DNA of 64,000 bases. Source: Candidatus Caccoplasma intestinavium. GTDB taxonomy: Bacteria > Bacteroidota > Bacteroidia > Bacteroidales > UBA11471. The translations under genes were made by a program, and so were the position numbers. Where the stretch lies: NCBI GenBank assembly GCA_018715885.1, contig DVKT01000022.1, forward strand, positions 24,119 through 88,118, in the 5' to 3' direction. Numbering within the stretch: position 1 is the stretch's first letter; every line of letters starts with the position of its first letter. Below are positions 8,070-59,993 of the stretch, one piece after another. The notes beneath the pieces are model-generated. The model did not search any database, was not told the DNA's origin, and worked only from the letters and a program-made list of their open reading frames with translations.

Positions 8070-8077
8070 CGATAAAT

Positions 8078-12158: not shown

Positions 12159-12256
12159 AATCGAAAAACTATAATTTGGCAGAATATGCCATTTTGTGTA
12201 ATTTTGGAGGTAAAATTAGCGAATCTTCCCGGGACGCGCAAATGATATTGAGACGA

Positions 12257-12721: not shown

Positions 12722-12848
12722 AAATCTCAGGAAAATATTTCATTACAGAATATTCTCGTTAAAAAAAATCAAATAGATATTATTCAAGAAACTTTCTTCT
12801 TTTTCGTGTGTCTTTATGAATAAAAGTTTCATTTATAAATTTACCGTC

Positions 12849-13388
12849 ATGAAAAAGATTCTATTTTCCTTATTCATGTTGAGTCTACTCTCAACGTCTG
12901 TTATCGCTCAGCAACCTATACAGAAATCCGGAGACAACAATCGAAATAAAGAAATGCACAATACCCCAAAACCGGACATGAAAAAGGACAATAAAAAATG
13001 TTGCATGTCGGTAGCGGAAACGACAAAATTACAGACGGAACAATTGAAAACTCTTTTACAACTCTCCGATGAACAAACCCGGAAAGTCCATGCGATCTTA
13101 TTGCGAGGAAATCAAAACGACAGTATTATGAACATACAAGTCGAAAAAATGAGTAAAGACCAAATGGCACAGCATACAGCACAAGCCGAAGCCATAAAAA
13201 AACTTCTCACCCCTCAACAACAAGCTGCTATGGCTGCCATGCCGGCCTTTGCTTCGGGAAAAGAAATATCATGCCATACGATTTCTCAATGTGCTCCAAG
13301 TCAAAAAAAGCAAATGATGACAGATAAGAACCATCATAAAAAAAACGATAGTAAATCTTCTTCGGGAAAAATCCAAAATAAAAAATAA
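12849..13388 (+). CDS. Secreted low-complexity protein with LTxxQ-type (Spy/CpxP-like) repeats
   Basis: Signal peptide MKKILFSLFMLSLLSTSVIAQQ. LSDEQTRKV and LTPQQQAAM motifs. K-rich tail. Confidence 0.55.
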   Translation: MKKILFSLFMLSLLSTSVIAQQPIQKSGDNNRNKEMHNTPKPDMKKDNKKCCMSVAETTKLQTEQLKTLLQLSDEQTRKVHAILLRGNQNDSIMNIQVEKMSKDQMAQHTAQAEAIKKLLTPQQQAAMAAMPAFASGKEISCHTISQCAPSQKKQMMTDKNHHKKNDSKSSSGKIQNKK

Positions 13389-13421
13389 CTTCTCATTCAT
13401 TATTTCGCATGTAATTTTTCA

Positions 13422-13453
13422 AAAAGCAGCTCGGTGTTCCGAGCTGCTTTTTT
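13422..13453 (+). terminator. Rho-independent terminator
   Basis: aaaagcagctcgg-tgtt-ccgagctgctttt is a perfect 13-bp stem followed by a T-run. Confidence 0.8.
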
Positions 13454-13539
13454 ATAATATCAAATAATCTATCCCTTCATTTCGAATAAATTTTACAGAA
13501 AACCATATCTTTGCAATAGCTTTATAGATTTGTAAAAAT

Positions 13540-14910
13540 ATGGCTAAACTCAAAACTGTATATGTGTGTACCCAATGCGGTGCAGAGTCCCCTAAATGGA
13601 TCGGGAAATGCCCCTCATGTGGAGAATGGAACAGTTATGTCGAAGAAGTGATCAGTTCAAAATCTTCTACGACACAAAGCCCGTCGTATAGCACCGACTC
13701 CCCTCGTTCAAAACCTCAAAAACTCGAAGAAATCTCCATTTCGCAAGAAGAAAGAATCGACTTGCACGACACGGAATTGAACAGAGTTTTAGGGGGGGGG
13801 CTCGTTCCGGGGTCGATGGTATTGATCGGTGGAGAGCCCGGTATCGGAAAATCTACTCTCGTTTTACAGACCGTACTGGGTCTGACAGGGAAAAAAGTCC
13901 TTTATGTATCGGGAGAAGAAAGTGCCCGCCAACTGAAAATGAGAGCAGACAGACTACACCGCAACAATCCCGATTGTTATATCGTATGTGAAACTTCCCT
14001 CGAAGAAATATTTGTGCACATACGTAATGTACAACCCGACATCGTTATTATCGACTCGATACAGACTATCTCGACGCAGTCTATTGAATCTTCTCCCGGT
14101 AGTATTTCACAAGTACGAGAATGTGCTGCATCTATATTGAAATTTGCCAAAGAAACCCATACGCCGGTACTGGTCATCGGGCACATCAATAAAGAGGGAA
14201 GCATCGCAGGGCCCAAAGTATTGGAACATATTGTCGATGCGGTCTTGCAATTCGAAGGAGACCGGCATTACATGTACCGGATTTTACGTTCTATAAAGAA
14301 CCGATTCGGTAGCACAGCCGAATTAGGAATTTATGAAATGTTGCAAAACGGGCTTCGGGAAGTAAGCAATCCTTCGGAATTATTGCTTACGCAAGATCGT
14401 GAGGGGCTGAGCGGTGTAGCCATATCCGCCGCCATAGAAGGGATACGTCCCTTTCTTATCGAAGTACAATCTCTTGTAAGTACGGCGGCCTACGGAACGC
14501 CGCAAAGATCGGCAACAGGGTTCGATCTGCGACGCATGAACATGTTGCTTGCCGTATTGGAAAAAAGAGTCGGTTTCAAACTCGCTCAAAAAGATGTCTT
14601 TCTCAATATTGCCGGAGGATTGAAAGTCAATGATCCGGCAATGGACTTGGGCGTAATCAGTGCCGTCTTGTCTTCTAATATGGACATGGCGATAGAACGG
14701 GACATTGCCATGACCGGAGAAGTCGGCTTATCAGGTGAAATACGCCCTGTTACTCGGGTCGAACAGCGTATCCTTGAAGCCGAGAAACTTGGCTTCAAGC
14801 GTATACTCGTTCCGATCCTTAACTTAAAAGGTTTCGACTCAAAGCGACTGCAAATAGAAATCACACCGGTACGGAAAGTCGATGAAGCCTTCCGTCAATT
14901 ATTCGGATAA
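13540..14910 (+). CDS. radA: DNA repair protein RadA
   Basis: 456 aa. N-terminal zinc ribbon (CTQCGAESPKWIGKCPSCGEWNS), Walker A (GEPGIGKST), KNRFG motif and a Lon-like C-terminus. Confidence 0.95.
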   Translation: MAKLKTVYVCTQCGAESPKWIGKCPSCGEWNSYVEEVISSKSSTTQSPSYSTDSPRSKPQKLEEISISQEERIDLHDTELNRVLGGGLVPGSMVLIGGEPGIGKSTLVLQTVLGLTGKKVLYVSGEESARQLKMRADRLHRNNPDCYIVCETSLEEIFVHIRNVQPDIVIIDSIQTISTQSIESSPGSISQVRECAASILKFAKETHTPVLVIGHINKEGSIAGPKVLEHIVDAVLQFEGDRHYMYRILRSIKNRFGSTAELGIYEMLQNGLREVSNPSELLLTQDREGLSGVAISAAIEGIRPFLIEVQSLVSTAAYGTPQRSATGFDLRRMNMLLAVLEKRVGFKLAQKDVFLNIAGGLKVNDPAMDLGVISAVLSSNMDMAIERDIAMTGEVGLSGEIRPVTRVEQRILEAEKLGFKRILVPILNLKGFDSKRLQIEITPVRKVDEAFRQLFG

Positions 14911-14911
14911 T

Positions 14912-16477
14912 ATGATAAAAGAAATTTCCATACGAGTATTACCACAACAAGCGGCTTCCGAAACAGCTCTCAAAGGATTTCTTGCCCGGGAATTTGCACT
15001 AAATCCCAAAGATATACAAGCGGTAAGAATACTGAAACGCTCCATAGACGCACGAAAGAGACAAGTCATAATAAATCTTACGGTACGCATCTACCTGAAC
15101 GAGCTACCGCCAAACGATATGTTCTCTCCGATTATTTACGGAGATGTTTCGGACAAGCAGCAAGCAATTGTCGTCGGAGCAGGTCCGGCCGGACTTTTCG
15201 CTGCATTGAGGCTCATCGAGTTGGGTATGCGTCCCATCGTATTGGAACGTGGTAAGGATGTACATCAACGGCGTAAAGATATTGCCCGCATCAGCCGAGA
15301 ACATAAGGTAGACAGCGAATCGAATTATTGCTTCGGAGAAGGTGGTGCGGGAGCATTCTCCGACGGTAAACTCTATACCCGTAGTAAAAAACGCGGATCG
15401 GTCGATCGTATTTTATCTATTCTTTGTCAACACGGAGCCTCACTCGACATACTGGCCGATGCCCACCCTCATATCGGAACAGATAAGCTGCCTCGCGTTA
15501 TCGAAAATATCCGTCATACGATTTTGGAATCCGGCGGAGAAGTAAAATTTGGGACACGAATAGACGAACTTATATTTGATAGACAAGAAGTTATCGGCGC
15601 AAAATCTCATACCGGAAATGTTTTTCCCGGACCAGTGATTCTCGCAACCGGTCATTCCGCCAGAGATGTTTATTATTATCTACATCGAAATAATATCGAA
15701 TTGGAGGCAAAAGGTTTTGCCGTCGGTGTGCGGCTCGAACACCCCCAAGAACTCATCGATCGCATACAATACCATAATTCCGAGGGACGAGGTAAATATT
15801 TACCGGCAGCCGAATACAGTTTCGTAACCCAAATCAACGGTCGAGGTGTTTACTCGTTTTGCATGTGTCCCGGAGGTTTTATCGTCCCGGCAGCAAGCGG
15901 TCCCAATCAATTGGTTGTTAACGGAATGTCCCCATCAAACAGGGGCTCTCGATGGGCAAACTCGGGAATGGTCGTAGAAATACGCCCCGAAGATATTCCC
16001 GGATATGAAGTTCACGATGTTTTGGCTGGCATAAAATTTCAAGAAGAAATTGAGTATCAGTGTTTCATCAACGGAAATTGCCGCCAAACAGCTCCGGCCC
16101 AACGCATGACAGATTTCATCAACGGCAAAATATCGCCAGACCTCCCCGCCACATCGTATACACCCGGAGTAATATCTTCTCCTTTACACTTTTGGATGCC
16201 CTCACTTATTACCGAGCGGCTTCGACAAGGATTTCGCCATTTCGGGAAAATATCTCATGGCTTTCTTACTCGAGAAGCCCTCATGATAGGTGTAGAAACC
16301 CGCACCTCTTCTCCCATACGTATACCCAGAGACAGTGAGCAATTACACCATATCCGTTTCGATGGATTATATCCATGCGGCGAAGGTGCCGGATATGCAG
16401 GCGGTATCGTATCGGCGGCTATTGATGGTGAAAGATGCGCAGAAGCTCTCGCTTACAAGTACCTAAAACTTCAATAA
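14912..16477 (+). CDS. NAD(P)/FAD-dependent oxidoreductase (COG2509-type FAD-dependent protein)
   Basis: VVGAGPAGLFAALRL dinucleotide-binding motif. Start moved to MIKEIS (14912), immediately after the radA stop. Confidence 0.8.
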   Translation: MIKEISIRVLPQQAASETALKGFLAREFALNPKDIQAVRILKRSIDARKRQVIINLTVRIYLNELPPNDMFSPIIYGDVSDKQQAIVVGAGPAGLFAALRLIELGMRPIVLERGKDVHQRRKDIARISREHKVDSESNYCFGEGGAGAFSDGKLYTRSKKRGSVDRILSILCQHGASLDILADAHPHIGTDKLPRVIENIRHTILESGGEVKFGTRIDELIFDRQEVIGAKSHTGNVFPGPVILATGHSARDVYYYLHRNNIELEAKGFAVGVRLEHPQELIDRIQYHNSEGRGKYLPAAEYSFVTQINGRGVYSFCMCPGGFIVPAASGPNQLVVNGMSPSNRGSRWANSGMVVEIRPEDIPGYEVHDVLAGIKFQEEIEYQCFINGNCRQTAPAQRMTDFINGKISPDLPATSYTPGVISSPLHFWMPSLITERLRQGFRHFGKISHGFLTREALMIGVETRTSSPIRIPRDSEQLHHIRFDGLYPCGEGAGYAGGIVSAAIDGERCAEALAYKYLKLQ

Positions 16478-16484
16478 TATAACC

Positions 16485-17936
16485 ATGATCTCTTTTTGTA
16501 TTGCATTGGCGGCCTTAATCATAGGCTTTTTCACTTATGGGAAATTTGTAGAGCGGGTATTCGGAATAGACCCGGATAGAAAAACTCCGGCGATAGCCAA
16601 TCCCGACGGAGTCGATTTCGTTCCTTTGTCTGGTTGGAAAATTTTTATGATTCAATTTCTGAATATAGCAGGACTGGGTCCTATATTCGGGGCCATAATG
16701 GGGGCTAAATTCGGAACATCTTCGTTCCTTTGGATTGTTTTCGGCACGATTTTCGCCGGAGCTGTTCACGACTTTATGGCCGGAATGATTTCTTTACGCC
16801 ATAATGGAGAGAGTCTCCCCGAAACAATAGGTCGCTATCTGGGTGTTACAGCCAAGCAGATCATGCGCTTCTTCACCGTTATACTTATGATTCTTGTTGG
16901 CGTCGTATTTGTTGCTGGACCGGCCGACCTACTTGCCATGCTGACTCCCCAAAATTTAGATTCTACATTTTGGATTTTCGTCATATTCGCCTATTACATC
17001 TTGGCAACCATGTTTCCTATCGATAAAATCATAGGTCGAATCTATCCAGCTTTCGCAGTCGCCCTCATTTTCATGGCAATCGGCATTCTTTTCATGCTGT
17101 TCATTTCATTTCCCGATATTCCGGAAATTACGGACGGACTTTCCAATAAATCCGAGGATCCCGAAAACAATCCCATATTCCCCATGCTGTTCATCAGCAT
17201 TGCTTGTGGAGCCATATCGGGATTCCATGCTACACAATCACCATTGATGGCACGTTGTATGACCAATGAACGTCAAGGCCGTTATATCTTTTACGGGGCG
17301 ATGGTTACCGAAGGTATCGTGGCCTTGATATGGGCAGCGGCGGCAACCTATTTTTTCAGTCCCGAAGGTCAAGCATTTTTCCATATCACCGAGCCCGAAA
17401 AAGTCAATGGAAATTCCGCTGTTATCGTCAATATCATATCCAATGGCTGGTTGGGCATGGTCGGTGGTGCTTTGGCAATTCTCGGCGTCGTTGCCGCTCC
17501 TATTACATCGGGAGATACGGCATTCCGTTCCGCACGTCTTATTGTGGCCGATTTCCTACACATGGAACAGCGGAGCATTTCCAAAAGGCTTCTTATATGC
17601 ATACCGCTTTTTCTTGTGGCCATACTCATTCTCATATATAATCTTTCCGACCCGGCCGGATTTGAAAAAATTTGGAGATATTTTGCGTGGAGTAATCAAA
17701 CACTGGCTGTATTCACCCTTTGGGCTATTACCATATATTTATCCCGAAAAGGGAAACCTTATTGGATAACACTTATACCGGCGCTTTTTATGATGGCAGT
17801 CGTAATTACATATATTCTTTTCGATCGTTCGGGCATAGCGCTTCCCTATACGACATCTGTCATTATATCTGCAATCGCAGTCGTTATATCCGCTATATAT
17901 TTCTTCTTATATCGATATAAGGAAAAACACTCGTAA
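16485..17936 (+). CDS. cstA: Carbon starvation protein A (peptide/pyruvate transporter family)
   Basis: 483 aa polytopic membrane protein. The N-terminal FLNIAGLGPIFGAIMGAKFG is typical of CstA. Confidence 0.9.
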   Translation: MISFCIALAALIIGFFTYGKFVERVFGIDPDRKTPAIANPDGVDFVPLSGWKIFMIQFLNIAGLGPIFGAIMGAKFGTSSFLWIVFGTIFAGAVHDFMAGMISLRHNGESLPETIGRYLGVTAKQIMRFFTVILMILVGVVFVAGPADLLAMLTPQNLDSTFWIFVIFAYYILATMFPIDKIIGRIYPAFAVALIFMAIGILFMLFISFPDIPEITDGLSNKSEDPENNPIFPMLFISIACGAISGFHATQSPLMARCMTNERQGRYIFYGAMVTEGIVALIWAAAATYFFSPEGQAFFHITEPEKVNGNSAVIVNIISNGWLGMVGGALAILGVVAAPITSGDTAFRSARLIVADFLHMEQRSISKRLLICIPLFLVAILILIYNLSDPAGFEKIWRYFAWSNQTLAVFTLWAITIYLSRKGKPYWITLIPALFMMAVVITYILFDRSGIALPYTTSVIISAIAVVISAIYFFLYRYKEKHS

Positions 17937-17966
17937 TACTTTTGATATGGTTTGTATCGATAAATT

Positions 17967-17997
17967 TTTGGCAAACAAAAAAATTACATTACCTTTG
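17967..17997 (+). promoter_or_regulatory. Bacteroides-type promoter (TTTG-N19-TACCTTTG) for tRNA-Pro
   Basis: TTTG at 17967..17970, a 19-nt spacer, then TACCTTTG at 17990..17997, 12 nt before the tRNA 5' end. Confidence 0.5.
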
Positions 17998-18009
17998 TCG
18001 CCTGAAAAA

Positions 18010-18084
18010 CGGGGCGTAGCGCAGTCCGGTTAGCGCACCTGCTTTGGGAGCAGGGGGTCGCGAGTTCGAATCTCGCCACCCCGA
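18010..18084 (+). tRNA. tRNA-Pro (anticodon TGG)
   Basis: Manual cloverleaf: acceptor cggggcg/caccccg (one C-A mismatch), D stem gcgc/gcgc, anticodon stem cctgc/gcagg with loop tTTGGGa, and T arm gcgag-ttcgaat-ctcgc. Confidence 0.9.
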
Positions 18085-18091
18085 CTATCGG

Positions 18092-18140
18092 AAATAGGTT
18101 GATAATCAAATATATAACGCGATTATCAACCTATTTTTTA
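18092..18140 (+). terminator. Rho-independent terminator after tRNA-Pro
   Basis: aaataggttgataatc ... gattatcaacctattt is a 16-bp perfect stem followed by a T-run. Confidence 0.75.
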
Positions 18141-18237
18141 TTCTTTCATTTGTTAAAAATAGGACAAAAACATACCTTATTTTGTCTCTTTTATCTTATT
18201 GTGTTTTGTGTATCGTGCGTGCAAATAAATACACTGG

Positions 18238-19167
18238 TCAAATAGAAGAACCCTCCGTACCAACACAAAAGTATGTCCGTTTCAAATCCTTAATCACTGC
18301 AAGGGTATATTTTGCTGCTCCTTCGCTATTGAGATGAGCACTGTCTATGAAATACTCTCTTTTGTTATTAAAGGTTGTATCTGTGTAGTGGTTAATAAAC
18401 GGCACATGATAGCGCTGACATAGTTCCATTAAGGGTTTGAATGCCGACGCATCTGTATTTTTATATTGTGGAGATGCCATAAATACAAGGGAAATACGGG
18501 AATCTCGACAATCTTTTATCAACCGTTCCAAATAATACAGTTTCAGAGGGTCTATCTCACAAGCGGACGTCGTTCCTGTTTCTTGCAAGACAGGCTCATA
18601 CGTCATTTGTCCTTCTAAGGGAACGTAACCATTTATATTTTTTCGCAAAGGCTTTATATTATCCATCATGATTTGAAGGAATTGGGAATTAAAGCGATAG
18701 GATTGTACCATCATCTTGAACCTTTCATTCTTATCCACCGACCAAAAGATAGAATCGACAGCTGGTTCACCGTAATAATATCTCAACCCCGGCAAATAAG
18801 CCATGTTATCGCCTTTCCACAGATCAAAGTTCGGCATGACATCATAGACAATCATTTGTGGGTGATACCTCTGCTGTATCATCTTGAACCAACCATACAG
18901 CAAGATTATTCCATTCCCGTCTTTACCACAATTGTAACAAGACATTTGCAACGAATCTTCCAATAACAACGGATCATAATGGTGGAGCGCTCGCGAAGAG
19001 CCGAAAATCAGCAGGTCTTCCGAAGTCTGTTTACAAATGTAATTAACCCTTCTAGTTTCACCACCTTTTGCACTGTCCACTAACGTTTGGAAACATATAC
19101 CTAAAGCGGTATCGACAAGAAATAGAATGACTAAAAACAAGATAATCTTAGCTACAAGCTGTCTCAT
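18238..19167 (-). CDS. SGNH/DltD-like membrane-anchored protein (partner of the MBOAT acyltransferase)
   Basis: 309 aa with an N-terminal TM anchor. Block I-like IFGSSRA and block V-like DSAHLN are present. Lies 10 nt downstream of the MBOAT gene. Confidence 0.55.
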   Translation of the reverse strand: MRQLVAKIILFLVILFLVDTALGICFQTLVDSAKGGETRRVNYICKQTSEDLLIFGSSRALHHYDPLLLEDSLQMSCYNCGKDGNGIILLYGWFKMIQQRYHPQMIVYDVMPNFDLWKGDNMAYLPGLRYYYGEPAVDSIFWSVDKNERFKMMVQSYRFNSQFLQIMMDNIKPLRKNINGYVPLEGQMTYEPVLQETGTTSACEIDPLKLYYLERLIKDCRDSRISLVFMASPQYKNTDASAFKPLMELCQRYHVPFINHYTDTTFNNKREYFIDSAHLNSEGAAKYTLAVIKDLKRTYFCVGTEGSSI

Positions 19168-50739: not shown

Positions 50740-52683
50740 TTACCACCACTGTTGTATACCGTTTTTATAAATAAAGATCCGTTCTTCTGCCCCTCCGCTC
50801 AAATTATGTAATATATACAATTTTCCTGCCGGAACTTTTTGAAAATCGAGATAATAATCGGTAGCGGTCTTTTCTCCCACACATTGCCAAGAAAAACCGT
50901 CCCAATACTCCAAACGATAATGATTCCCCGGAATAATAAAGTTTGTATCGCTTCGGGGTACATAGCGTATCCGCGTCAATGTGTGATCATTTCTTTCACC
51001 CAAATCAAGTGCTACATACCCTTCTACTTTCTTATCTTTTCTAAAATAGGTACTATAATCACCATCGACAGCTTGTTCCCAACCTGTTTCTATTTCATTC
51101 TCCGGGACGCCAAATGCAAATCCGTTCAAAACCTGTTCTTCTTCCGTACCTTGTTTCCGACCATAAAAAACTATTTCTGCCAAATTACCCTCACGATTAT
51201 CATCAAATTTCATTCGAACATATCTATATGGACGAGTAACATTTAAGATAGAATCGACTATATCTTGTGCATCTCTATCCAAAACAGTCATTACAATTTC
51301 CGAGTCTGAAAAATCTGGATTGTCCGAGACCTCCACTGTTGCTCCTAAAAGAGCCTTCGAAAACGAGGTAATACGTGTAAATTTCGGATATTTACGAGTC
51401 AGATGCATATCGACAAAACCGGACGTATCGGATCGGATATATTCTATTCTGCCTTCCTTGTCGAGAATAAAGGGCGGTGTCGCTGGGACAAAGGTACTCT
51501 CATCGTAATAACCAGCCATATAGCAAACATCGCCTATCATATTTTTGAAATAGAACTTGCCCTCGGACACCTGCCCGTAATCGACCGGCTGCCACTCCTT
51601 GTTATCGAACACGCAGATTACGCCATACGGGAACGATCTATATCTATCAGTAACCTCAGGATCACCGGCAACATCTACATCGAATGTCGGAAAATAAAGA
51701 TGCGATACATCGATCCTATCCGACGCCAATAAATACCCGGGAACATACTCGGCAGCATTTTCATTCACATCTTGTATCTCAAAAGTCTGGCGAAATATTT
51801 TAGCCGGTTTATAGGTAAAAAAATACCGTTTTCTATCCAAGGCATCGAAAGGAAGAAACTGGCCGCTATCTTTCAAAACGACCACCCACTCGTGCCCCTG
51901 ACTACGGTTTCCCCAATGATTGACATAATCTATCGTTGCCGGAATCCCACATGCTCTCAAAGTAAGTACATAATATTCGCTCATGTGCCGGCACGATCCA
52001 CGTCGAGCCTGTTCCACCTTACTCCTCGGCAAAGAGATGGGATATCCCCACATCAATCGGCTATTTTTATACTTACGTACTCTATCGAACTCATGATACA
52101 ACTCCTTGATAAGACGGTCATCGTTGATAATAAGCGAATCTCGGATTCTCCGGAATTGCTCGAAATGCCTTTTACGATACGGTTCCAAAGGTTCATTTCC
52201 TATACGGTACGGCAACACGTACCGGCAAAAAAGGTCGAAATCTCGGGATATGAAATCCGGAACTGTCTGCCACGCCTCAAAAGCCGTCTCTATCTCCTCT
52301 ATCAAAAACTCTGCCGAAACGGTTTCCGTATCATACTGTCGTCCTAAATACAAAGGTTGCAGTCGTCCGTATTTGTGCAACAGATTCCACCAACATTGCT
52401 CGACAAGAGCAGGATCGGATTCGGAATTACCACTCCTATATAATCTTTCATATAGCGAAAATATTGTATCATAGCGTTCTATCTGTTTATCCCTATACCC
52501 AAATTTCCCGGGCATATTTTCTATTAAAAATTCCGCAGCCACCCTCTTCAAAGAATCATTGGCGTAAAAATCCAACACTTTTTCCACCTCATCATTTGGT
52601 AAAACCGGAGCTTCCAATACATTACAGCTCCATAAAATTTGCATCAAAAGCAAAATCGAAAAAATACATCTTGATATACTCAT
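50740..52683 (-). CDS. Transglutaminase-like cysteine-protease-fold lipoprotein with C-terminal discoidin (F5/8 type C)-like domains
   Basis: Signal MSISRCIFSILLLMQILWSC. Cys-His-Asp core (RGSCRHMSEY, GHEWVVV, FDALD). The C-terminal ...NLAEIVFYG is discoidin-like. Start moved from 52743 to 52683. Confidence 0.75.
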   Translation of the reverse strand: MSISRCIFSILLLMQILWSCNVLEAPVLPNDEVEKVLDFYANDSLKRVAAEFLIENMPGKFGYRDKQIERYDTIFSLYERLYRSGNSESDPALVEQCWWNLLHKYGRLQPLYLGRQYDTETVSAEFLIEEIETAFEAWQTVPDFISRDFDLFCRYVLPYRIGNEPLEPYRKRHFEQFRRIRDSLIINDDRLIKELYHEFDRVRKYKNSRLMWGYPISLPRSKVEQARRGSCRHMSEYYVLTLRACGIPATIDYVNHWGNRSQGHEWVVVLKDSGQFLPFDALDRKRYFFTYKPAKIFRQTFEIQDVNENAAEYVPGYLLASDRIDVSHLYFPTFDVDVAGDPEVTDRYRSFPYGVICVFDNKEWQPVDYGQVSEGKFYFKNMIGDVCYMAGYYDESTFVPATPPFILDKEGRIEYIRSDTSGFVDMHLTRKYPKFTRITSFSKALLGATVEVSDNPDFSDSEIVMTVLDRDAQDIVDSILNVTRPYRYVRMKFDDNREGNLAEIVFYGRKQGTEEEQVLNGFAFGVPENEIETGWEQAVDGDYSTYFRKDKKVEGYVALDLGERNDHTLTRIRYVPRSDTNFIIPGNHYRLEYWDGFSWQCVGEKTATDYYLDFQKVPAGKLYILHNLSGGAEERIFIYKNGIQQWW

Positions 52684-52708
52684 ATTCAATTCTCCTTTAA
52701 ACGTACGA

Positions 52709-54715
52709 TCAAATCGCCAATGACTTTTTATACCAAACTTCAAATAAAAAACGATATTGCTTCCATATCAAATCCTCTATATTTTTCTCCTCTGCCGGCT
52801 TATAATCATTTCCTGTAAAAATTCCCTGTGCCGTTACTCTTCCCATACGATTATATTGGTACGCCTTATCTACTAGACCTTTTCTCTCATATATACACGC
52901 CAAGTTAAACCACACTCTCGACAGATTTGGCAATTGTTCATTCGAGCTAAACAAATAAAATTCGGCCGTTTCAAAATCGCCAAGCTGCATAGCAATACTT
53001 CCATATTTAGCCAAATCAATAGGATTAGAAGGCTTCTGCGAAATATGTATCAACAAAAAATTTACAACTCGTTCAGTAAATTCTTTGTCGTAAAACCGAA
53101 GTTTTTCCCAATAGGTCGTTTTTAAAATATTCGGTTCTTGCAATACGACAGAAACAAACATTTCTATTGCTTTATCTACAAATCCTTTCTGCCGATATAT
53201 TTTATATAATTCCCATTTGAAAATAAGTTTATCAGGATAAACTGATATCCATTTTTCCAGTTCTTTTAAAAACGTATTTTCCGCTTCCTTAATGGAATAT
53301 AAGCGCACATAAAATGATAAGTGAATATCCAATGGGCTTTTCTTTAAGGCTTTTTCAAAATAACAAAGAGATCTTTCAACATTTTTATCCCGCAAAAAAA
53401 TTGCTCTGTTGACCATAAAAGAAAAACATTCCTTACTATTCCAGTTATAAAGAACCAGTCCAACCACATATGTCATCACTATACAAGGCAAGAAACAAAG
53501 TATGACTGGAAAATTCTTCTTCTCTCTTTCACATTCTACCCTTTTACTTTGTAAAAAAGCTACAAGGAAAAGGGTTGATAATTGTATAACCTTCGAATCG
53601 AACATTGTCGAAAAGGTCTGCTCCCTAACAAAAAAAGCCATTAAAAACAACGATATTATCCATAATTTCCGTTCTTTTCTCTTTATCAATAAAAAAACAA
53701 TAGACCAACAAAGTATCAAATATATACACACACCACAATAACCATACTCAATAAAAAGTTTTGAAATTGTATTGGGTGCATATGTAGTGTAAGAATCAAC
53801 CCTTTTATCACCAACCTGATAATAATCTTTCGCCAAAGTATAGTTATTCAGACCTACACCCCAAGGATATTTTTTCAAGATATCGGAGGTAATTGACATG
53901 GCCTTTACTCTCCCATCTATACTTCTTTGTTGAGAAACAGTCTTATTTATTTCAAAAACTTTTTTCGTTTCATGAGGAAATAAGAAAAAAATTCCTATTA
54001 TAAAAATAGCACAACTACCCAACAGAAATTTTTCCCGATCTACAAATAATCTCTTTCTTTCCAGTATAAACAAAACAATGGCAAACACCAGTGCCGATAA
54101 ATATATTCCTCTCGAAAATGACAATAACAATTGACACAATACCATACAGCCAGTTATAGCAGCAAGAGCCTTGACTTTTCGATTCTCAACATAAAAATAT
54201 GCGATTGCCAATATGCCCCCGAATAACCATTGTAAACTACTCCATACATTATTGGAAATTCCCAATGGAGCATACAAAAACCTGAAATCATACAACGAAG
54301 AAGAACCCGCATTATGGACAGTCTCGGAAAACAGATAATATATATAGAAAGATATAGTTAACAAAACAAAAATGCATACGGTAAATATAGAAAGAAGGTA
54401 ACCCGCAAATTTTCCATAATAGGTAAAAACATACCTCAAAATAAAGTAAGCAAATATATTTGTTATCAAATAAACGAGCATCACATTAGTATTTATCGTA
54501 TTAACTGATGGTAAAAAAAGCCCGTACGCTCCTAACAAAATAATACAAATATCACAAACACCCACTTTCAAAGGCCGTATAAATATGAATATCATTAAGC
54601 TAAAAACCAATAACAACAATTGTACAAAATACGTATCCTTGATATAAAAAAAATCAGCAAGGAACACAAATGTCAATAAACAGCAACTCGATATGCAAAC
54701 CAACTGTTTCATCAT
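52709..54715 (-). CDS. Polytopic Wzy_C (O-antigen ligase/polymerase-like) membrane protein with a C-terminal TPR-like domain
   Basis: 668 aa with more than 10 hydrophobic segments. Wzy_C-type loop LSFSRGIYLSALVF. The C-terminal ~250 aa are TPR-like helical repeats. ATGA overlap with the upstream gene. Confidence 0.6.
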   Translation of the reverse strand: MMKQLVCISSCCLLTFVFLADFFYIKDTYFVQLLLLVFSLMIFIFIRPLKVGVCDICIILLGAYGLFLPSVNTINTNVMLVYLITNIFAYFILRYVFTYYGKFAGYLLSIFTVCIFVLLTISFYIYYLFSETVHNAGSSSLYDFRFLYAPLGISNNVWSSLQWLFGGILAIAYFYVENRKVKALAAITGCMVLCQLLLSFSRGIYLSALVFAIVLFILERKRLFVDREKFLLGSCAIFIIGIFFLFPHETKKVFEINKTVSQQRSIDGRVKAMSITSDILKKYPWGVGLNNYTLAKDYYQVGDKRVDSYTTYAPNTISKLFIEYGYCGVCIYLILCWSIVFLLIKRKERKLWIISLFLMAFFVREQTFSTMFDSKVIQLSTLFLVAFLQSKRVECEREKKNFPVILCFLPCIVMTYVVGLVLYNWNSKECFSFMVNRAIFLRDKNVERSLCYFEKALKKSPLDIHLSFYVRLYSIKEAENTFLKELEKWISVYPDKLIFKWELYKIYRQKGFVDKAIEMFVSVVLQEPNILKTTYWEKLRFYDKEFTERVVNFLLIHISQKPSNPIDLAKYGSIAMQLGDFETAEFYLFSSNEQLPNLSRVWFNLACIYERKGLVDKAYQYNRMGRVTAQGIFTGNDYKPAEEKNIEDLIWKQYRFLFEVWYKKSLAI

Positions 54716-55920
54716 GATTCTTTATATACACGTATCTTCTTGTAAAATGGATATATGATCCGGTACAACATATAAAATGCCAATACCAAGAATAATAATT
54801 GAAGAACAATTTGTTGTACATTCGACCAGTCCGGAGTTTGGCGATATGACAATTCTCTTATCAATAGACTGAAACGATCAGGAAAAGTTTCATAAAACCG
54901 TACGAAAAACAAAGGTAAAACATAGAAAAAGTAAAATCCAAAAAACAAATTGACTACAACCGTATAAACTACTAATCCAGATTTTGCTCCCCGGGATAAC
55001 GCAAATAAATAGGGTCGATGCTCTACTTTTTTATTCTTTATTTTACTCAAAACATATCCAACCCATTCTGTCCCCTTTTTTCGTAAATTGGCAACCCCCA
55101 AAACATCTGACAAAATCCAATATCCGTCAAATTTGAAAAATGGATTCAATGTAATAACAAAATTCATATTCATCACCACAATTATATATTTGAAAAATGG
55201 GTAATGAAAGAAAAAATAAGCTATAAGAAACGGTATTAATAAAACCATCTGAAAATACACACCACCTATATTGATCAGAAAACGCTCCCTTCGAGTAAGT
55301 TTCCATGCCTGAGAAACATCGGTATAGAAAACAGGAATATTAAGATATAATCCGAAGCCAATATTTCCATGAGGAATCTGAAAATAATGACAAGCTGATG
55401 CATGCCCCAATTCATGTATCAACGACGAAAAAATAAAAAACAGGAATAATCCTATTACTGTATAGATACTCAGATCAACGTGTATAGTTTCAGTATAAAA
55501 TTCTGTAAAATGAATAAAATCCAGAATAATAAATATACCGACAATCGCCATCATCACACGGCTATCGAAAAGTATTTTCAGAGAAGAAGCGCACTTTCTT
55601 ACTTTCTCGGACGAAATCAAATCGTGCCGATAAAGAAATACTCCCTTTTTAGTCGAGGATACCTTTCCCTCCGCAATTTTCGACGACAGCATTTCCAAAA
55701 ATTCGATGACATCGTCTTTCGACGGATGTCCATCATGACTTTCTACATAAGTATCCACTGCCACTTCATCGCAACCATTTTCTTTGAGGTAATTCAGCAA
55801 CTCCGCCGCATCTTTTCCTATTTCAAAGAAATGATTATTAAATTCCATCAAAAAAGTTGTATGCAACGACGAAGTAGAAAAAGGTCCCACTGTTATACGC
55901 ATCAAATCAAAATTATCCAT
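54712..55920 (-). CDS. PqqD-like (RRE-like) N-terminal domain fused to an M50/site-2-protease-like intramembrane metalloprotease
   Basis: 402 aa. HELGH at residues 169-173 within a TM segment and NPFFKFDG at 259-266 (M50 NPxxxxDG). The N-terminal ~85 aa (FFEIGKDAAELLNYLKENG...DDVIEFLEMLSSK) resemble PqqD. Confidence 0.7.
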   Translation of the reverse strand: MDNFDLMRITVGPFSTSSLHTTFLMEFNNHFFEIGKDAAELLNYLKENGCDEVAVDTYVESHDGHPSKDDVIEFLEMLSSKIAEGKVSSTKKGVFLYRHDLISSEKVRKCASSLKILFDSRVMMAIVGIFIILDFIHFTEFYTETIHVDLSIYTVIGLFLFFIFSSLIHELGHASACHYFQIPHGNIGFGLYLNIPVFYTDVSQAWKLTRRERFLINIGGVYFQMVLLIPFLIAYFFFHYPFFKYIIVVMNMNFVITLNPFFKFDGYWILSDVLGVANLRKKGTEWVGYVLSKIKNKKVEHRPYLFALSRGAKSGLVVYTVVVNLFFGFYFFYVLPLFFVRFYETFPDRFSLLIRELSYRQTPDWSNVQQIVLQLLFLVLAFYMLYRIIYPFYKKIRVYKES

Positions 55921-55926
55921 AACCGA

Positions 55927-58239
55927 CTATTCTAGAATTGTTGACTGATTAATATCTTTTATTTCTGTACTATGGAATTTGTGTTTTTTCTTACCAAACG
56001 TAAAACGATAGTTGACCGTCAACTGGAACATATTGTCATAGGTGCGTTCATAACGCATCGCATTGATTTTTGAATATGACAATCTTTCATACCAACCTTT
56101 AAACGTTGTTTTCATAAAAGGACTCAATGTCCTGAATTGGATATTCCAACCTTTTATGGAGTAACCGACATTCAAATCAAAACCTCCCGACGATTGAATT
56201 TTCGTCCCAGATTTTTCTATATAAGAACGTTTAGGGGCATACCCTGCCGAAACCGACCAGCCTTTATGAAAAAAATAACAATCGATTGACACATTATACG
56301 AATCACCATATATCGTTTTCCAATATGCTAACTTTTCATGCTTATAGTTTCCATATACCTCAACCATCAATTTTTGGGGTATAATACTATATTGCAACTG
56401 TAATTCATAACTTTGCGATATAGAATTACCACTACTTCGCTGCTGACAGACAAACATATCTCTGTCAGCAGCGTATTCGATATTGGTATAAGGTGAACGG
56501 TAATCTCCTCCGAATATAAAACCCGCACCCACAAAGAATCGATCTACTACCCAAGTATAAATAGCTCCGGCTTGATATTTTCGCCAATCTTTCAACCCGG
56601 GATTTCCTACGGAAATTTCATAAATATTACGACGGTACTCCGTAGCCGTGAGGTTGGTAATACTGGGCGAAGAACCTGATGTTTCGGCAACTATCTGTAA
56701 CATATGTGTTTTATACATATATGTCATTTGCAATGATGGTACAAACATATGATCGAAATAGGTATCAGCACCTGTTTGGCTGAATGATAAACGTTCTGCT
56801 AATCGCAAACGCAAATTCAAACGATTTTTTACCTTGTAATTATAGGTAAGATATAATTGTGTGTTGCCTCGGTTCAAATATACGTCGGATACCACACCTT
56901 CACGCGCGTTGCGATCGTCGGTGCGGGTAAAGTCCTGATTGGCTTCTACATTAAATGACGAACGATTCTTGAATGTTTTGGTATAATTGATTTTAAACCG
57001 TCCATACCAACTCGATTCGTCGGTTGCATTATCATAGGCCGAAGTTATTACATCATCGATTCGATAAACATACCAACGTTTGTAGTCGTTATTACCATAA
57101 CTGCCATACCAATCCATACGCAAACGCTGGTCGTTTTTCAACGCACATTCATACCAAAACGACAATGCCGGAGACAAACCGGTCGAATGCCGGTTTTCTT
57201 GCATAGTATAGGTTTCGGGGGTATTGCTGAATGTCTGACTATTCCATACATCATTCTCTCTCAAGTTTTGATTCAAACGAAAAGAAGAATAGACACTCTG
57301 TTTTTTATCTTTATATATGTAATTGAAATAAGAACGCAAATTATTACTGTTTTTTTGTGAAGGTAGTTCTTGGGTCGTATTCACATTCGTTCCATCAGGA
57401 AAACCGTAAGCCGTTTCTGTATAATTTTCGCTATTGTAGTTACTAAAACAATCATAGCTGTCGGCCACAGAAAGGGCAAATTCCGACTTCCCTTGAAAAT
57501 ATTGAGCCGTCCCCCGAGCACTACCTGTAGGTTTATTTAAGTTATGCTGACCATTGACTGCAACCGTACCGGCATAGTCCCGCTCTTTCAGTACATAGTC
57601 AAACACAACATCAGCTTTGGGATAGTCGGTATTACCATTGGTATAGAAATCGATTCGCTTGATATCTCGCGGATTCAAATTGTTTACCTCGTCTTCGGTG
57701 GCTTCCCGTCCGTCAATGCAGAACAATATCTCTCGTCCCATATAAGTCGGTTTCTGGTCATATATGCCGATGCTCACACCGGGTATGGTCATTGTTCTCA
57801 ACAAGCTGTTTCGGTCATACACATGACGTAACTGTTCACGAGTAGGGTATATCATCGTTTTTTCAGCAGTGTGCACCGTATGATTACCCGTAACAATAAC
57901 CTCCTGTATGAGTGCAGAACTCCGGCTCAAAGTAATATCGCCAAGCCGCACCAACTTTTCTTCGGTAGGATTCAATATAAGGGTCATCTCTTTATAACCG
58001 AGATAGCCTATTTGCAGACGAAACGCCTGTTTCCCCCCCGATAGTTTCAATCTAAAATCTCCTTTACTGTCAGTTATCATACTAGCAACAAGAAGAGTAT
58101 CGGAAGTAAAACAACATACCGTTGCCCCTATCAGGTCATTCCGCTCACTATCCCGCACATGACCTTCCACCTCGATGGTCTGTGCCATAACAGATGGAAT
58201 AGTTGTAAATATGACGATAAAAAAAACGATATATTTCAT
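55927..58239 (-). CDS. TonB-dependent-receptor-like outer membrane beta-barrel (CarboxypepD_reg + plug-like + barrel)
   Basis: Signal MKYIVFFIVIFTTIPSVMAQ. VEGHVRDSERNDLIGATV...DSKGDFRL is carboxypeptidase-regulatory-like. A plug-like segment is present (LLRTMTIPGVSI...CIDGRE...IKRIDFY). The barrel is aromatic-rich and alternating. The track start at 58263 is an alternative. Confidence 0.8.
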   Translation of the reverse strand: MKYIVFFIVIFTTIPSVMAQTIEVEGHVRDSERNDLIGATVCCFTSDTLLVASMITDSKGDFRLKLSGGKQAFRLQIGYLGYKEMTLILNPTEEKLVRLGDITLSRSSALIQEVIVTGNHTVHTAEKTMIYPTREQLRHVYDRNSLLRTMTIPGVSIGIYDQKPTYMGREILFCIDGREATEDEVNNLNPRDIKRIDFYTNGNTDYPKADVVFDYVLKERDYAGTVAVNGQHNLNKPTGSARGTAQYFQGKSEFALSVADSYDCFSNYNSENYTETAYGFPDGTNVNTTQELPSQKNSNNLRSYFNYIYKDKKQSVYSSFRLNQNLRENDVWNSQTFSNTPETYTMQENRHSTGLSPALSFWYECALKNDQRLRMDWYGSYGNNDYKRWYVYRIDDVITSAYDNATDESSWYGRFKINYTKTFKNRSSFNVEANQDFTRTDDRNAREGVVSDVYLNRGNTQLYLTYNYKVKNRLNLRLRLAERLSFSQTGADTYFDHMFVPSLQMTYMYKTHMLQIVAETSGSSPSITNLTATEYRRNIYEISVGNPGLKDWRKYQAGAIYTWVVDRFFVGAGFIFGGDYRSPYTNIEYAADRDMFVCQQRSSGNSISQSYELQLQYSIIPQKLMVEVYGNYKHEKLAYWKTIYGDSYNVSIDCYFFHKGWSVSAGYAPKRSYIEKSGTKIQSSGGFDLNVGYSIKGWNIQFRTLSPFMKTTFKGWYERLSYSKINAMRYERTYDNMFQLTVNYRFTFGKKKHKFHSTEIKDINQSTILE

Positions 58240-58347
58240 TATATTATCATATAATGTATACAAAAATTGAGGGTAATCAAGATTTATACTGAATATAATA
58301 CCATATATAATTTAAAAATATAGATCTCTCACACCCTCAACTTTTAT

Positions 58348-58569
58348 TTATAAATCAAATTCTTGGCAATATTCTGAACAGTATTGCTTACATTTTCCAT
58401 TACATATACAAATGCATTCATCCGAAGAATCAGAACTATCCATATTCAACAACGCCGCTATTGCTAACGGGTCTGTTTCCAATCGTTGTTCCAGCTCATC
58501 TAAATAAAAAGCTGGCAACTCTTCGTTCAGAGAACGAAGTTCATTTTTCTTCTCTTTCATAATTTTCAT
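58348..58569 (-). CDS. Candidate RiPP precursor peptide: acidic helical leader plus Cys-rich CXXX-repeat core
   Basis: 73 aa. All 6 Cys lie at residues 52, 54, 56, 60, 64 and 68 (CICICNGKCKQYCSEYCQEFDL). The leader is ...PAFYLDELEQRLETDPLAIAALLNMDSSDSSDE. Starts 15 nt after the radical SAM gene stop. Confidence 0.75.
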   Translation of the reverse strand: MKIMKEKKNELRSLNEELPAFYLDELEQRLETDPLAIAALLNMDSSDSSDECICICNGKCKQYCSEYCQEFDL

Positions 58570-58584
58570 TTTTAAGTTAATAAA

Positions 58585-59925
58585 TCAGTTATTTAATTGC
58601 AGATCTGCATACGCTTTATTGACAGCATAACGCACAATATCTTCCATACGAAGACAATGATGTCGTTTCAGATTATGAGCCGGACATCCGCATCCGCATA
58701 ACAAAGCATATTTGCACACGGTACAAGCCTGAATCTCTGATATATGCGCCTTATGCCAATTGTCGAGAGGTTCCTGACTCCAAGAAACACCGCCAGCACT
58801 CGCATAATGACCTATGCAGTGTTCGGGCCGGCCTACGACTTCCCAGCAAGGATAGATATTACCATATGGATCAAAAACAAAGCTTCCAGTCTGCGCTCTA
58901 CAAAAAATAGGATGAAAAGACAGAGGTTTTTTCCTCATAATGGCTTGATAAAGTTTATCAAACACGCCATAATCCTGATATTCAAATTGAGATTTAGAAA
59001 CACTATGCTTTTGAATAAATTCTCGTTGCGTCAAGTAATGATAAGTATTGTCCGTTTCGGATTCAGAATAATCAACCAACAATGCCGAATTCATTGAAAA
59101 AAGCGGATTTTCGACATACTGTAAACGCTCGAAAATCGCTTGTAACTCTTTCAAATCTTCGATATTCTCCCTATCTGTATTAACCCGTACAGAAACCCGA
59201 ACACCTCTCTTCAAAGCCAAACCGATATTATCCAAAATACGGTCGAATGTAGGGAAACCCTGGCAATGTATGCGACGACTATTATGGTGGTCACGAACAC
59301 CATCTACCGTGATTTGCAAAAAAGCGATGCCGTCGGGTGAAAGTAAGTCTTCATAAGCAACCAAATCATAACCATTTGTAATAGCAGAAAATGTAAAACC
59401 TAACCTTTTGCCTCTATCAATAATATAAGATATGATTTTTCTGTTTTGTACTAAAAGAGGTTCCCCTCCATATAATGTAATATTTTTAAAAAAATACTTT
59501 TCGTTAGGTTCTATATAAAAAATTGCTTCAAAAGCTTTATCTACCATCTCAGGAGTAAATACCATTTTATCCCTTCCTACTCCTTTCTCAAAACAATATG
59601 GGCAACGGAAATTACAATCGTAAGTAATGACAAATGTAAAACCTTTTTTCAACAACATATCTCTACGGAATAAAATATCGGCCATGTATGCAACATAATC
59701 ATACTCTTCTTGCTCCGCTTTTTCAGTAATATATCCGCGTTGTATCAATGCAGACCATGTTTTTGCAGAATAAGGAAATTCACTCTCTGTAAACGTATCG
59801 TGACTATTGATAAAAGAAACGATTTTATCATTCACTAAATCAATAGCTCCTGTATAACCGTGAATCAACATATGATCATTACTACCATCGACCTTTACAT
59901 CGGTCATATAAGAAGACTTTCTCAT
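58585..59925 (-). CDS. Radical SAM/SPASM-domain peptide-modifying enzyme (putative maturase of the adjacent peptide)
   Basis: 446 aa. CX3CX2C at C104/C108/C111 (YDCNFRCPYCF). C-terminal auxiliary-cluster Cys pattern (CRAQTGSFVFDPYGNIYPC...C...CTVCKYALLCGCGC). ~95-aa N-terminal extension. Confidence 0.9.
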   Translation of the reverse strand: MRKSSYMTDVKVDGSNDHMLIHGYTGAIDLVNDKIVSFINSHDTFTESEFPYSAKTWSALIQRGYITEKAEQEEYDYVAYMADILFRRDMLLKKGFTFVITYDCNFRCPYCFEKGVGRDKMVFTPEMVDKAFEAIFYIEPNEKYFFKNITLYGGEPLLVQNRKIISYIIDRGKRLGFTFSAITNGYDLVAYEDLLSPDGIAFLQITVDGVRDHHNSRRIHCQGFPTFDRILDNIGLALKRGVRVSVRVNTDRENIEDLKELQAIFERLQYVENPLFSMNSALLVDYSESETDNTYHYLTQREFIQKHSVSKSQFEYQDYGVFDKLYQAIMRKKPLSFHPIFCRAQTGSFVFDPYGNIYPCWEVVGRPEHCIGHYASAGGVSWSQEPLDNWHKAHISEIQACTVCKYALLCGCGCPAHNLKRHHCLRMEDIVRYAVNKAYADLQLNN

Positions 59926-59962: not shown

Positions 59963-59993
59963 CAAATATAGAAAATTTATTTTATAAAACAAA
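59963..59993 (-). promoter_or_regulatory. Bacteroides-type promoter (TTTG-N19-TATATTTG) for the radical SAM/peptide operon
   Basis: On the minus strand, TTTG lies at 59993..59990, followed by a 19-nt spacer and TATATTTG at 59970..59963. This is 38 nt upstream of ATG 59925. Confidence 0.45.

Follow-up and report, generated by a model that had tools for sequence, protein, structure and literature searches.

To our knowledge, little has been established about how modified peptides pass the outer membrane of Gram-negative gut bacteria, and a locus of Candidatus Caccoplasma intestinavium, a member of the Bacteroidales, raises this question in a direct form. In a stretch of 64,000 nucleotides from this organism (contig DVKT01000022.1, positions 24,119 to 88,118), here called the window, six co-directional genes on the minus strand encode a radical SAM (rSAM)/SPASM protein, a precursor peptide, an outer membrane protein (OMP), an HExxH peptidase, a Wzy_C-TPR protein and a transglutaminase-like protein. 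We take these genes to form a cassette for a ribosomally synthesised and post-translationally modified peptide (RiPP), in which, as the first-pass annotation had stated, the OMP does lie between the precursor and the protease genes. What, then, is the task of an outer membrane protein at this place? We consider it likely that the protein is a TonB-coupled gate with specificity for the mature core peptide, irrespective of the direction in which it works, and it would thus serve an rSAM/SPASM RiPP cassette that is common in gut Bacteroidales as the part in the outer membrane that is specific for the peptide. With regard to direction we tentatively prefer a cognate receptor, an uptake gate for the secreted peptide.

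Linkage of the outer membrane protein to the peptide core

Metagenome contigs were scanned with an alignment of the HExxH peptidase, and the best 80 of 294 matches were kept as loci. Upstream DNA extends over more than 2.6 kb in 60 of these loci, and in every one of the 60 a member of this OMP family is encoded directly upstream of the peptidase gene, where adjacency was defined as an OMP end no more than 400 nt from the peptidase start and in practice amounts to a few tens of nt. In the window the peptidase gene begins 6 nt after the OMP stop codon. With the exception of the near-identical loci L045-L047, the OMPs of these cassettes are 22-51% identical to the window protein, and the cassettes come in two gene orders, with the transglutaminase-like gene either before the rSAM gene (T-R-p-O-H-W) or after the Wzy gene (R-p-O-H-W-T). 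A family member with 33% identity also has a peptidase gene next downstream. Components of the ABC, FtsX, TolC or HlyD types are encoded in none of the 80 cassette loci.

Seen from the OMP, the association is looser. Among 27 OMP-centred loci in genomes there are 6 conserved cassettes, 3 degraded cassettes and at least 11 solo copies. The conserved cassettes belong to Bacteroides caecimuris, other Bacteroides, Prevotella and Xylanibacter rodentium; five of them have the full order rSAM-precursor-OMP-HExxH-Wzy, with a transglutaminase-like gene in four of these five, and the contig of the sixth (L012) begins at the OMP and holds the downstream part only. The distribution of the cassette is sparse and patchy: of 401 genomes from across the order 6 have the peptidase marker, and none of 3 congeners has it. 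From the cassette side the OMP is clearly near-obligatory, and from the OMP side the picture is mixed. The first-pass annotation had argued that wide occurrence of the protein without RiPP neighbours would speak against a role in peptide biology. That part of the objection which concerns solo copies holds for about half of the OMP-centred genome loci, but it does not extend to the cassettes, which near-obligatorily carry the protein.

A more specific link emerged from the comparison of loci of the same species, defined here by peptidase genes that are at least 96% identical. Within one species the genes for the peptidase, the Wzy_C-TPR protein and the transglutaminase-like protein are 96-100% identical, and the peptide core and the OMP, often together with the rSAM protein, are replaced as a block, the exchanged OMP alleles being 41-85% identical. 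L053 and L056, with different cores, share 99% identity in the rSAM protein, 99% in the peptidase and 100% in the transglutaminase-like protein, set against 81% in the OMP; for L051 and L053 the corresponding figures are 97% (rSAM), 99% (peptidase), 98% (Wzy) and 85% (OMP). L053 and L059, on the other hand, have cores that differ by one residue, and their OMPs are 95% identical, like the other genes. Three unrelated cores are found in L082, L086 and L089, where the peptidase is 98-99% and the Wzy protein 99-100% identical, the OMP 42-46% and the rSAM protein 58-60%. The same pattern of replacement, again with differing cores, recurs in L070/L078 (OMP 56%) and L090/L093 (OMP 41%), and in L084/L118, from which no precursor was recovered, only the OMP differs (51%). 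L075 and L078 have similar cores (77%) and OMPs that are 87% identical, with the peptidase lower at 72%. When OMP alleles were clustered at 95% identity, each allele with a recovered precursor was found to pair with exactly one core sequence.

The limits of the exchanged block can be located in the DNA. Between L053 and L056 the divergent stretch runs from within the precursor core to the OMP stop codon. In L082/L086, L086/L089 and L072/L076 the right flank, 97-99% identical, sets in again about 100 nt before the OMP stop; this distance is 350-470 nt in L070/L078 and L085/L119, and in L090/L093 the flank returns in the spacer between OMP and peptidase. The left breakpoint varies and is situated inside the core, inside the rSAM gene or upstream of it. 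As evidenced by this block replacement, the cassette splits into a constant module of peptidase, Wzy_C-TPR and transglutaminase-like protein, which plausibly deals with the conserved leader, and a variable module of core, OMP and often rSAM protein, which deals with the core. Every change of the core is accompanied by one of the OMP, so that direct binding of the mature, cross-linked peptide by the OMP is most likely. The functional tie between OMP and modified peptide that had been proposed from the window alone is thus borne out by the 60 adjacencies to the peptidase and by the joint replacement with the core in same-species comparisons. Note that direct binding of the core, TonB dependence, the direction of transport and the role of the peptide once inside are steps that we infer beyond the data shown.

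Intact copies of the OMP also persist where the peptide is no longer made locally. The rSAM gene is absent from 11 of the 46 loci with more than 5 kb of upstream DNA, and an intact OMP was kept after deletion of rSAM and precursor in L004, L047, L085, L101, L076 and L081. Two of these, L004 and L047, are independent degraded haplotypes of the window species. In L004, a UMGS999 contig from a 97%-related genome, two clean deletions corresponding to positions 53118-55728 and 58248-59894 of the window have removed the precursor, the rSAM gene, most of the peptidase and most of the Wzy gene, leaving OMP and transglutaminase-like gene intact. Its OMP is 97% identical to that of the window (97.3% in the DNA of the segment, with flanks at 89-92%), and the deletion has placed it directly behind the rSAM promoter region. 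L047 has no precursor, has lost most of the rSAM gene and carries frameshifted peptidase and Wzy genes next to an OMP that is 99% identical. Secondary deletions that ended just short of the OMP have left traces in three loci: in L085 the OMP reading frame opens with rSAM-like N-terminal codons, and in L101 and L076 a truncated transglutaminase gene precedes the OMP. Additional copies occur as well: L089 and L121 have an extra intact OMP upstream of a complete cassette, the one in L089 being 99% identical to the cognate allele of L086, and L072, L076 and L081 hold two intact OMPs in tandem. Retention of the OMP without local production fits the uptake of peptide from neighbours, or protection, and does not fit an exporter without any other role. 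As many of the deletions are very recent, with neighbouring genes that are 100% identical, retention alone is weak evidence.

Solo copies are found in recurrent contexts. One of them is the order Lon-OMP-prfA-pyrF-pgk of L001 (annotated by Pfam) and L006-L008, and by the size of its reading frames the same order surrounds a paralog in the window's own genome (L032, contig C41:11566-13875), which is 54% identical to the window OMP and located between lon and prfA. This paralog has one TAA within a frame of 783 codons and an intact open reading frame (ORF) of 763 aa. Two congeneric genomes have an ortholog with 81-82% identity and no cassette gene nearby, a tally that represents a lower bound, with two candidates scored per genome. 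In Prevotella the solo OMP follows genes for an extracytoplasmic function (ECF) sigma factor, an anti-sigma factor and a redoxin protein of about 660 aa (L015 6765-12265; L024; L016; L013; L026), an operon that may be a stress-induced system for Cys-rich peptides. The redoxin protein has a C-terminal AhpC/TSA-thioredoxin domain, and in L013 a second OMP of 936 aa is inserted. A single clade of cassette OMPs was considered and rejected, as the two kinds of copy are mixed on the OMP tree, with 7 label changes, about as many as shuffled labels give.

Some deviating loci deserve mention. In the type-strain genome of Bacteroides finegoldii JCM 13345 (AP027244.1; L025, 8113-12311) a transglutaminase-like gene is followed by an OMP broken into 453 + 231 aa, a decayed remnant. 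A subfamily of about 687 aa without the N-terminal CarboxypepD_reg domain (L126 2984-7929; L127) is encoded last in an operon with an ABC ATPase, a 265-aa protein, a GntR regulator and a 278-aa protein. A cassette variant without OMP, L039 (G304:C1:2950000-2969900, 5580-18609), consists of a transglutaminase gene, an rSAM gene split into 139 + 328 aa, precursor, HExxH peptidase and Wzy, after which follow a MacB-type ABC ATPase, two MacB_PCD/FtsX permeases, an OEP (TolC-like) protein and an HlyD-like protein. A MacAB-TolC system as a functional substitute for the OMP was considered on this basis; as L039 is the only OMP-less cassette found, it was kept as weak evidence.

Fold, family and surrounding genes

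The OMP frame comprises 778 codons on the minus strand, from a TTG at 58263 to the stop at 55927, and the real start is most likely the ATG at 58239, which yields 770 aa. The gene is clearly not a chance ORF: dN/dS is 0.08 against the congeneric ortholog and 0.12 against L004, indicating purifying selection, and an identical 770-aa database cluster (P0001) has 226 member sequences. An AlphaFold2 (AF2) model based on alignment A1 of 50 sequences (mean pLDDT 85.2, pTM 0.74) consists of a beta-sandwich, a disordered linker (residues 105-120), an alpha/beta plug, a barrel and a disordered tail of 20 residues, with the boundaries given in Table 1. In a Foldseek search of the PDB with this model the top 50 matches were all TonB-dependent transporters (TBDTs), with E values down to ~1e-18, a probability of 1.0 and TM scores of ~0.5-0.6; they include ChuA, Cir, PhuR, BtuB and FepA, as well as OprC and ZnuD, which are not specific matches. 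The DSSP string of the model contains 26-28 strand segments, which is not an exact count for the barrel, and the map of inside and outside was derived from it by hand.

Sequence models see far less of the protein. Pfam reported only CarboxypepD_reg domains (PF13620/PF13715) at residues 24-116, with 29 bits just under the cut-off of 32 bits, and at E<=0.01 PF13620 was matched in all 50 aligned relatives and PF13715 in 47. Neither Plug (PF07715) nor TonB_dep_Rec (PF00593) nor PF14905 matched the window OMP in searches to E<=10, Plug and TonB_dep_Rec matched 0 of the 50 relatives at E<=0.01, and NCBIfam and PDB sequence searches returned nothing for plug or barrel. Membership among the TBDTs therefore rests on the fold search and on profile-profile comparison. 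The architecture noted in the first-pass annotation, a 770-aa protein with a carboxypeptidase-regulatory-like domain, a plug-like segment and a large barrel, is confirmed by Pfam, the AF2 model and Foldseek taken together, and the check for a TonB box and a plug that it had called for found both, the plug in the AF2 model and without a match to the Pfam Plug model.

In the TonB-box-like motif E113 and V116 are invariant and V114 is at least 90% conserved among the 50 relatives, and 26 diverse cassette OMPs have the pattern x(E/D)VxVxG at the corresponding place. With the family profile, the N-terminal domain and the motif QEVIVTG align with the N-terminal extension and the stretch DEVVVVGYG of the SusC homolog in PDB entry 8aa4 (E 9e-12), the latter of which we take to be the SusC TonB box, and the profile also matches the SusC N-terminal domains of 9hfj and 6ytc. 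Only the N-terminal ~120 aa of the window OMP match SusC by sequence. Unlike SusC and RagA, which are ~1000 aa long and always have an adjacent gene for a SusD/RagB lipoprotein, the window OMP has 770 aa, no SusD-like gene next to it and the precursor and the HExxH peptidase as neighbours. RagAB imports oligopeptides.

We read the window OMP as a divergent subfamily of the PF14905 branch of TBDT-like proteins. The distant cassette OMP of L038 matches PF14905 (295 bits), CarbopepD_reg_2 and, in the region homologous to the window plug, Plug (25.7 bits), and hhalign pairs the window family with it at full length (98.7% probability over 703 columns). PF14905 is furthermore matched in 17 of the 50 close relatives (best E 4.9e-14). 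The architecture of CarboxypepD_reg domain, plug and barrel is that of PF14905 (OMP_b-brl_3) proteins of Bacteroidota; unlike these, the window protein misses the PF14905, Plug and TonB_dep_Rec models, and no PF14905 member has a demonstrated substrate. An exhaustive search for the family, counted as clusters of 50% identity, returned 1080 representatives at E<=1e-3 and 68 at E<=1e-30.

TonB-dependent transporters normally end at a terminal aromatic residue, and the tail of the window OMP is thus unusual. Among the 50 relatives G749 and K751 are invariant and K752, H753 and F755 at least 90% conserved, in a region with pLDDT <50. The tail motif FGKKKHKF...NQSTI.. (aa 749-770, positions 55930-55995) is found in cassette and solo copies, and deep alleles end in ..INSAILKV(N/E). 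Docking of the tail onto the TPR domain of the neighbouring protein was considered, an idea weakened by solo copies that keep the tail without having that neighbour.

Table 1. Position of the cassette genes and of the segments of the OMP in the window
Feature	Position	Strand	Basis
Radical SAM/SPASM peptide maturase	58585..59925	minus	Pfam, NCBIfam
Precursor peptide, 73 aa; conserved leader (..ELRSLNEELPAFYLDELEQRLETDPLAIAALL) and Cys-rich core (CICICNGKCKQYCSEYCQEFDL)	58348..58569	minus	
OMP gene, 770 aa from ATG 58239; TBDT fold, divergent PF14905 relative	55927..58239	minus	
OMP signal peptide, aa 1-20 (MKYIVFFIVIFTTIPSVMAQ)	58180..58239	minus	Sequence reading; helix 2-12 in AF2 model; cleavage site inferred
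OMP N-terminal extension, aa 21-104; CarboxypepD_reg-type beta-sandwich as in SusC/Oar-class transporters	57928..58179	minus	PF13620/PF13715, profile, AF2 model
OMP TonB-box-like motif QEVIVTG, aa 112-118, in disordered linker	57886..57906	minus	Conservation, alignment with 8aa4
OMP compact plug domain, aa 121-217	57589..57879	minus	AF2 secondary structure, Foldseek TBDT matches
OMP beta-barrel, aa 222-750; aa 520-700 most variable among same-species alleles	55990..57576	minus	AF2 model, Foldseek
OMP basic C-terminal tail past the last strand, presumably periplasmic	55930..55989	minus	GKKKHKF begins in last barrel codons; ...STILE is the protein end
Polytopic HExxH peptidase, relative of daptide/YydH types; constant module	54712..55920	minus	NCBIfam NF041824, 85 bits, below cut-off
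Wzy_C (O-antigen-ligase-like) membrane protein with C-terminal TPR region; constant module	52709..54715	minus	Pfam
Transglutaminase-like putative lipoprotein; constant module	50740..52743	minus	Pfam

The precursor has no Pfam or NCBIfam match of any kind. Across 28 distinct precursors the leader is strongly conserved (SLNxELxEFxxxELExRLETDPLAxGGLLD), and the cores are hypervariable in length and in the number of Cys residues (2-10), with many Asp, Glu, His and Asn. Judging from NCBIfam relatives, the SPASM maturase probably consumes the core Cys residues in thioether links. The HExxH motif is invariant in the peptidase alignment A2. For the Wzy_C-TPR protein a topology drawn by hand has 9 transmembrane helices, the Wzy_C loop and 4 further transmembrane helices, with KRKERK and SKRVECEREKK on the cytoplasmic side; this puts the TPR region of ~240 aa in the periplasm, from where it could reach across to the outer membrane in the way known for the TPR scaffolds of polysaccharide export. 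The sequence TATATTTG at 59963-59970, ~38 nt upstream of the rSAM start and with a TTTG ~20 nt further up, matches the Bacteroides -7 promoter motif TAnnTTTG and is the likely operon promoter. G+C content is 31-40% in the rSAM-to-Wzy segment (~52.5-60 kb) compared to 42-51% in the flanks; together with the scarcity of the peptidase marker across the order and in congeners this suggests that the cassette was acquired horizontally. It encodes no periplasmic binding protein, inner-membrane importer, regulator (for metals or otherwise), STN domain or sigma pair.

Direction of transport and competing explanations

In the reading that we tentatively prefer, the OMP would take up the secreted peptide, originating from its own cell or from neighbours, and orphan copies would allow non-producers to use or to sense it. 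It would in this respect have parallels in the FpvA/pyoverdine types, in MbnT/methanobactin and in the transporters of lasso-peptide isopeptidase clusters. The invariant TonB box counts for uptake, as do the orphan and solo copies, and the energy logic of TonB is that of high-affinity capture of scarce ligands. All but one of the characterised TBDTs import their substrate (PMC6434023), in Flavobacterium johnsoniae starved of phosphate a PF14905-type TBDT is induced ~250-fold (PMC8115612), and TBDTs occur in the lasso-isopeptidase RiPP clusters of Proteobacteria (PMC9266682). These clusters resemble the present cassette in that a TBDT and a dedicated hydrolase are found without an ABC exporter, but unlike the regulator-less cassette they contain GntR and sigma/anti-sigma genes, and they belong to another RiPP class and another phylum (PMC9266682). 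Overall, the data confine the role of the OMP to a peptide-specific one that is useful in non-producers too.

A number of points weigh against uptake. Import does not explain the invariant adjacency of OMP and peptidase genes, an OMP that only imports leaves secretion unexplained in cassettes that show no recognisable exporter (80 of 80), and with neither inner-membrane importer nor periplasmic binding protein nor regulator in the cassette an imported peptide has no obvious onward route. Were the peptide a bacteriocin, its import would harm the very cell that makes it. The solo copies of Prevotella follow ECF sigma and anti-sigma genes, but the OMP has no STN domain and the anti-sigma factor no Pfam match at all (no FecR), so that this context looks more like envelope-stress defence than FecIRA-type control of uptake. 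Other points concern specificity as such. A graded co-variation of core and OMP was looked for and not found: the global partial Mantel test of core similarity against OMP identity, controlled for the peptidase, was not significant (r 0.087, p ~0.1), and the link is visible only as block replacement, for which the physical linkage of precursor and OMP could partly account. A diversification focused on the loops was likewise rejected, since alleles of one species differ throughout the barrel, as often in its periplasmic half as in the outer half and the loops (0.22-0.27) and less often in the plug and the N-terminal domain; these differences hence give no pointer to an external binding site. 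Most loci, moreover, are metagenome contigs or metagenome-assembled genomes, in which chimeric joins at shared OMP genes are possible (e.g. L012/L013).

The opposite direction is a serious possibility, if still short of our preference: the OMP would secrete the mature periplasmic peptide and, being peptide-specific and powered by TonB, would also expel cognate peptide arriving from outside, in the manner of an Oar-type protein that doubles as self-protection, and orphan copies would represent acquired immunity. The protein is the only outer-membrane component of the cassette, no other exporter being found in the 80 loci, and its gene stands where RiPP operons usually carry that of their transporter, tightly coupled to the gene of the leader peptidase (60 of 60 cases). 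The OMP-less L039 encodes a MacAB-TolC-type pump instead, and relatives without N-terminal extension stand in ABC-exporter/GntR operons; both observations count against uptake and for export. If the product is a bacteriocin, its immunity determinant should co-vary with the core, which only the rSAM protein and the OMP do, and the solo copies behind ECF sigma/anti-sigma and redoxin genes fit a stress-induced defence. A precedent is Oar of Myxococcus xanthus, a TBDT that is required for the secretion of the protease PopC, a periplasmic protein, with its TonB box being important (PMC6434023), and that shares CarboxypepD_reg extension, TonB box, plug and barrel with the window OMP. Oar differs from the latter in being larger, in matching the canonical models for Plug and TonB_dep_Rec and in having a 50-kDa protease, not a RiPP, as cargo, and the resemblance noted here is one of domain order. 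In graspetide loci of Bacteroidetes, pfam14905/SusC-type OMPs are listed among the genes associated with the ATP-grasp enzymes, and such PF14905/TonB-related OMPs have been predicted to mediate export (Makarova et al. 2022, PMC8939145); the RiPP class there is ATP-grasp, here rSAM/SPASM. Against export it must be held that Oar is the one experimental precedent for TBDT-mediated export, that a peptide leaving down its concentration gradient requires no energy from TonB and no highly specific gate, and that L039 is a single case with a gap of 393 nt before the pump genes and a broken rSAM gene. A pure exporter would also be useless in non-producer haplotypes and solo contexts, such that immunity has to be added as a further assumption.

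A special case of uptake had been put forward in the first-pass annotation, namely a metallophore logic like that of methanobactin, where a secreted metal-binding RiPP is loaded with Zn, Cu or Fe and re-imported through the OMP. The cores are indeed rich in Cys, His, Asp and Glu (e.g. CDVHCDDHCSEHCGRFHC), with recurrent C(D/E)H motifs, metal chelates are classical substrates of TBDTs, and the fold matches include OprC and ZnuD, although these are not specific. The co-diversification of peptide and receptor furthermore resembles that of pyoverdine and FpvA: in the pyoverdine loci of Pseudomonas aeruginosa the receptor and the peptide-determining genes are the hypervariable, co-diversifying part of a conserved locus, and in both FpvA/pyoverdine and MbnT/methanobactin a dedicated TBDT is paired with a secreted, peptide-derived product. 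Those systems, however, possess conserved chelating groups, regulators (FpvI/R, MbnI/R) and partners in the periplasm or inner membrane, all of them absent here. Of the features that mark an MbnT operon (MbnA/MbnBC, an MbnE-type protein and copper-responsive regulation) the cassette shows none, its genes being only of the rSAM/SPASM, HExxH, Wzy_C-TPR and transglutaminase-like types; it has no MbnE-like binding protein, metal regulator, STN domain or sigma pair. There is no conserved ligand motif in cores of variable length and Cys content, the maturase probably converts thiols into thioethers, as its NCBIfam relatives suggest, and the patchy distribution is unlike that of a core metal-acquisition trait. 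Because the cores are hypervariable, the metallophore logic is not favoured and we regard it as improbable.

Even less credit can be given to a receptor swap, modelled on the BSAP toxins of Bacteroidales, in which the peptide attacks or enters competitors through their OMP of this family and the cassette carries a resistant allele as decoy immunity. Paralogous solo OMPs in the same genomes, such as the 54% paralog between lon and prfA, the deep allelic polymorphism of the OMP within species and the existence of tandem arrays are in line with this idea, but in producers the sensitive paralog is not replaced and both copies are present, no evidence ties the peptide to killing, and the idea accounts neither for the invariant TonB box nor for the link with the peptidase gene; we hold it to be very unlikely. 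The faintest chance of all we give to a passenger gene, a general nutrient transporter that serves as a recombination landmark beside the precursor and has no role in the biology of the peptide. The RiPP-free half of the OMP-centred genome loci and the tree, where cassette and solo labels are sorted no better than by shuffling, speak for it, as do L012 (cassette) and L013 (solo), which share a 97.6% identical OMP gene within unrelated flanks. A mere passenger should, however, not be adjacent to the peptidase in 60 of 60 loci across OMPs as divergent as those described above (L045-L047 excepted) and in two gene orders, and the replacement of the whole OMP gene coincides with that of the core between flanks that are 97-100% identical.

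Implications for peptide traffic in gut Bacteroidales

The kind of protein, a TBDT-like relative of PF14905, is already known. New are its near-obligatory place in an rSAM-RiPP cassette and its membership of a swappable specificity module, with orphan and tandem copies. A full-text literature search returned no description of this cassette and turned up only a brief mention that connects PF14905-type OMPs with other RiPP loci of Bacteroidetes (PMC8939145), and a mining study of Bacteroidales RiPP clusters mentions neither TonB-type OMPs nor transglutaminase-like genes (PMC10352776).

A broader, decidedly speculative picture is that of a polymorphic lock-and-key system in gut Bacteroidales, where each allele of the cassette would stand for a different cross-linked peptide with its matching TonB-dependent gate and non-producers would collect orphan gates. 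Such a system would be the RiPP counterpart of pyoverdine/FpvA siderotypes or of pherotype loci and would serve private uptake or immunity among co-resident strains. The exchange of OMP and core together within an otherwise constant locus leads to the concrete hypothesis that the peptide has its partner in specificity in the barrel. The same exchange supplies natural sets of cognate, non-cognate and orphan alleles with which the direction of transport, competition and cooperation at the level of strains and the recognition of peptides by TBDTs can be tested. Should the gate turn out to export, it would join a single other TBDT for which outward transport has been shown.

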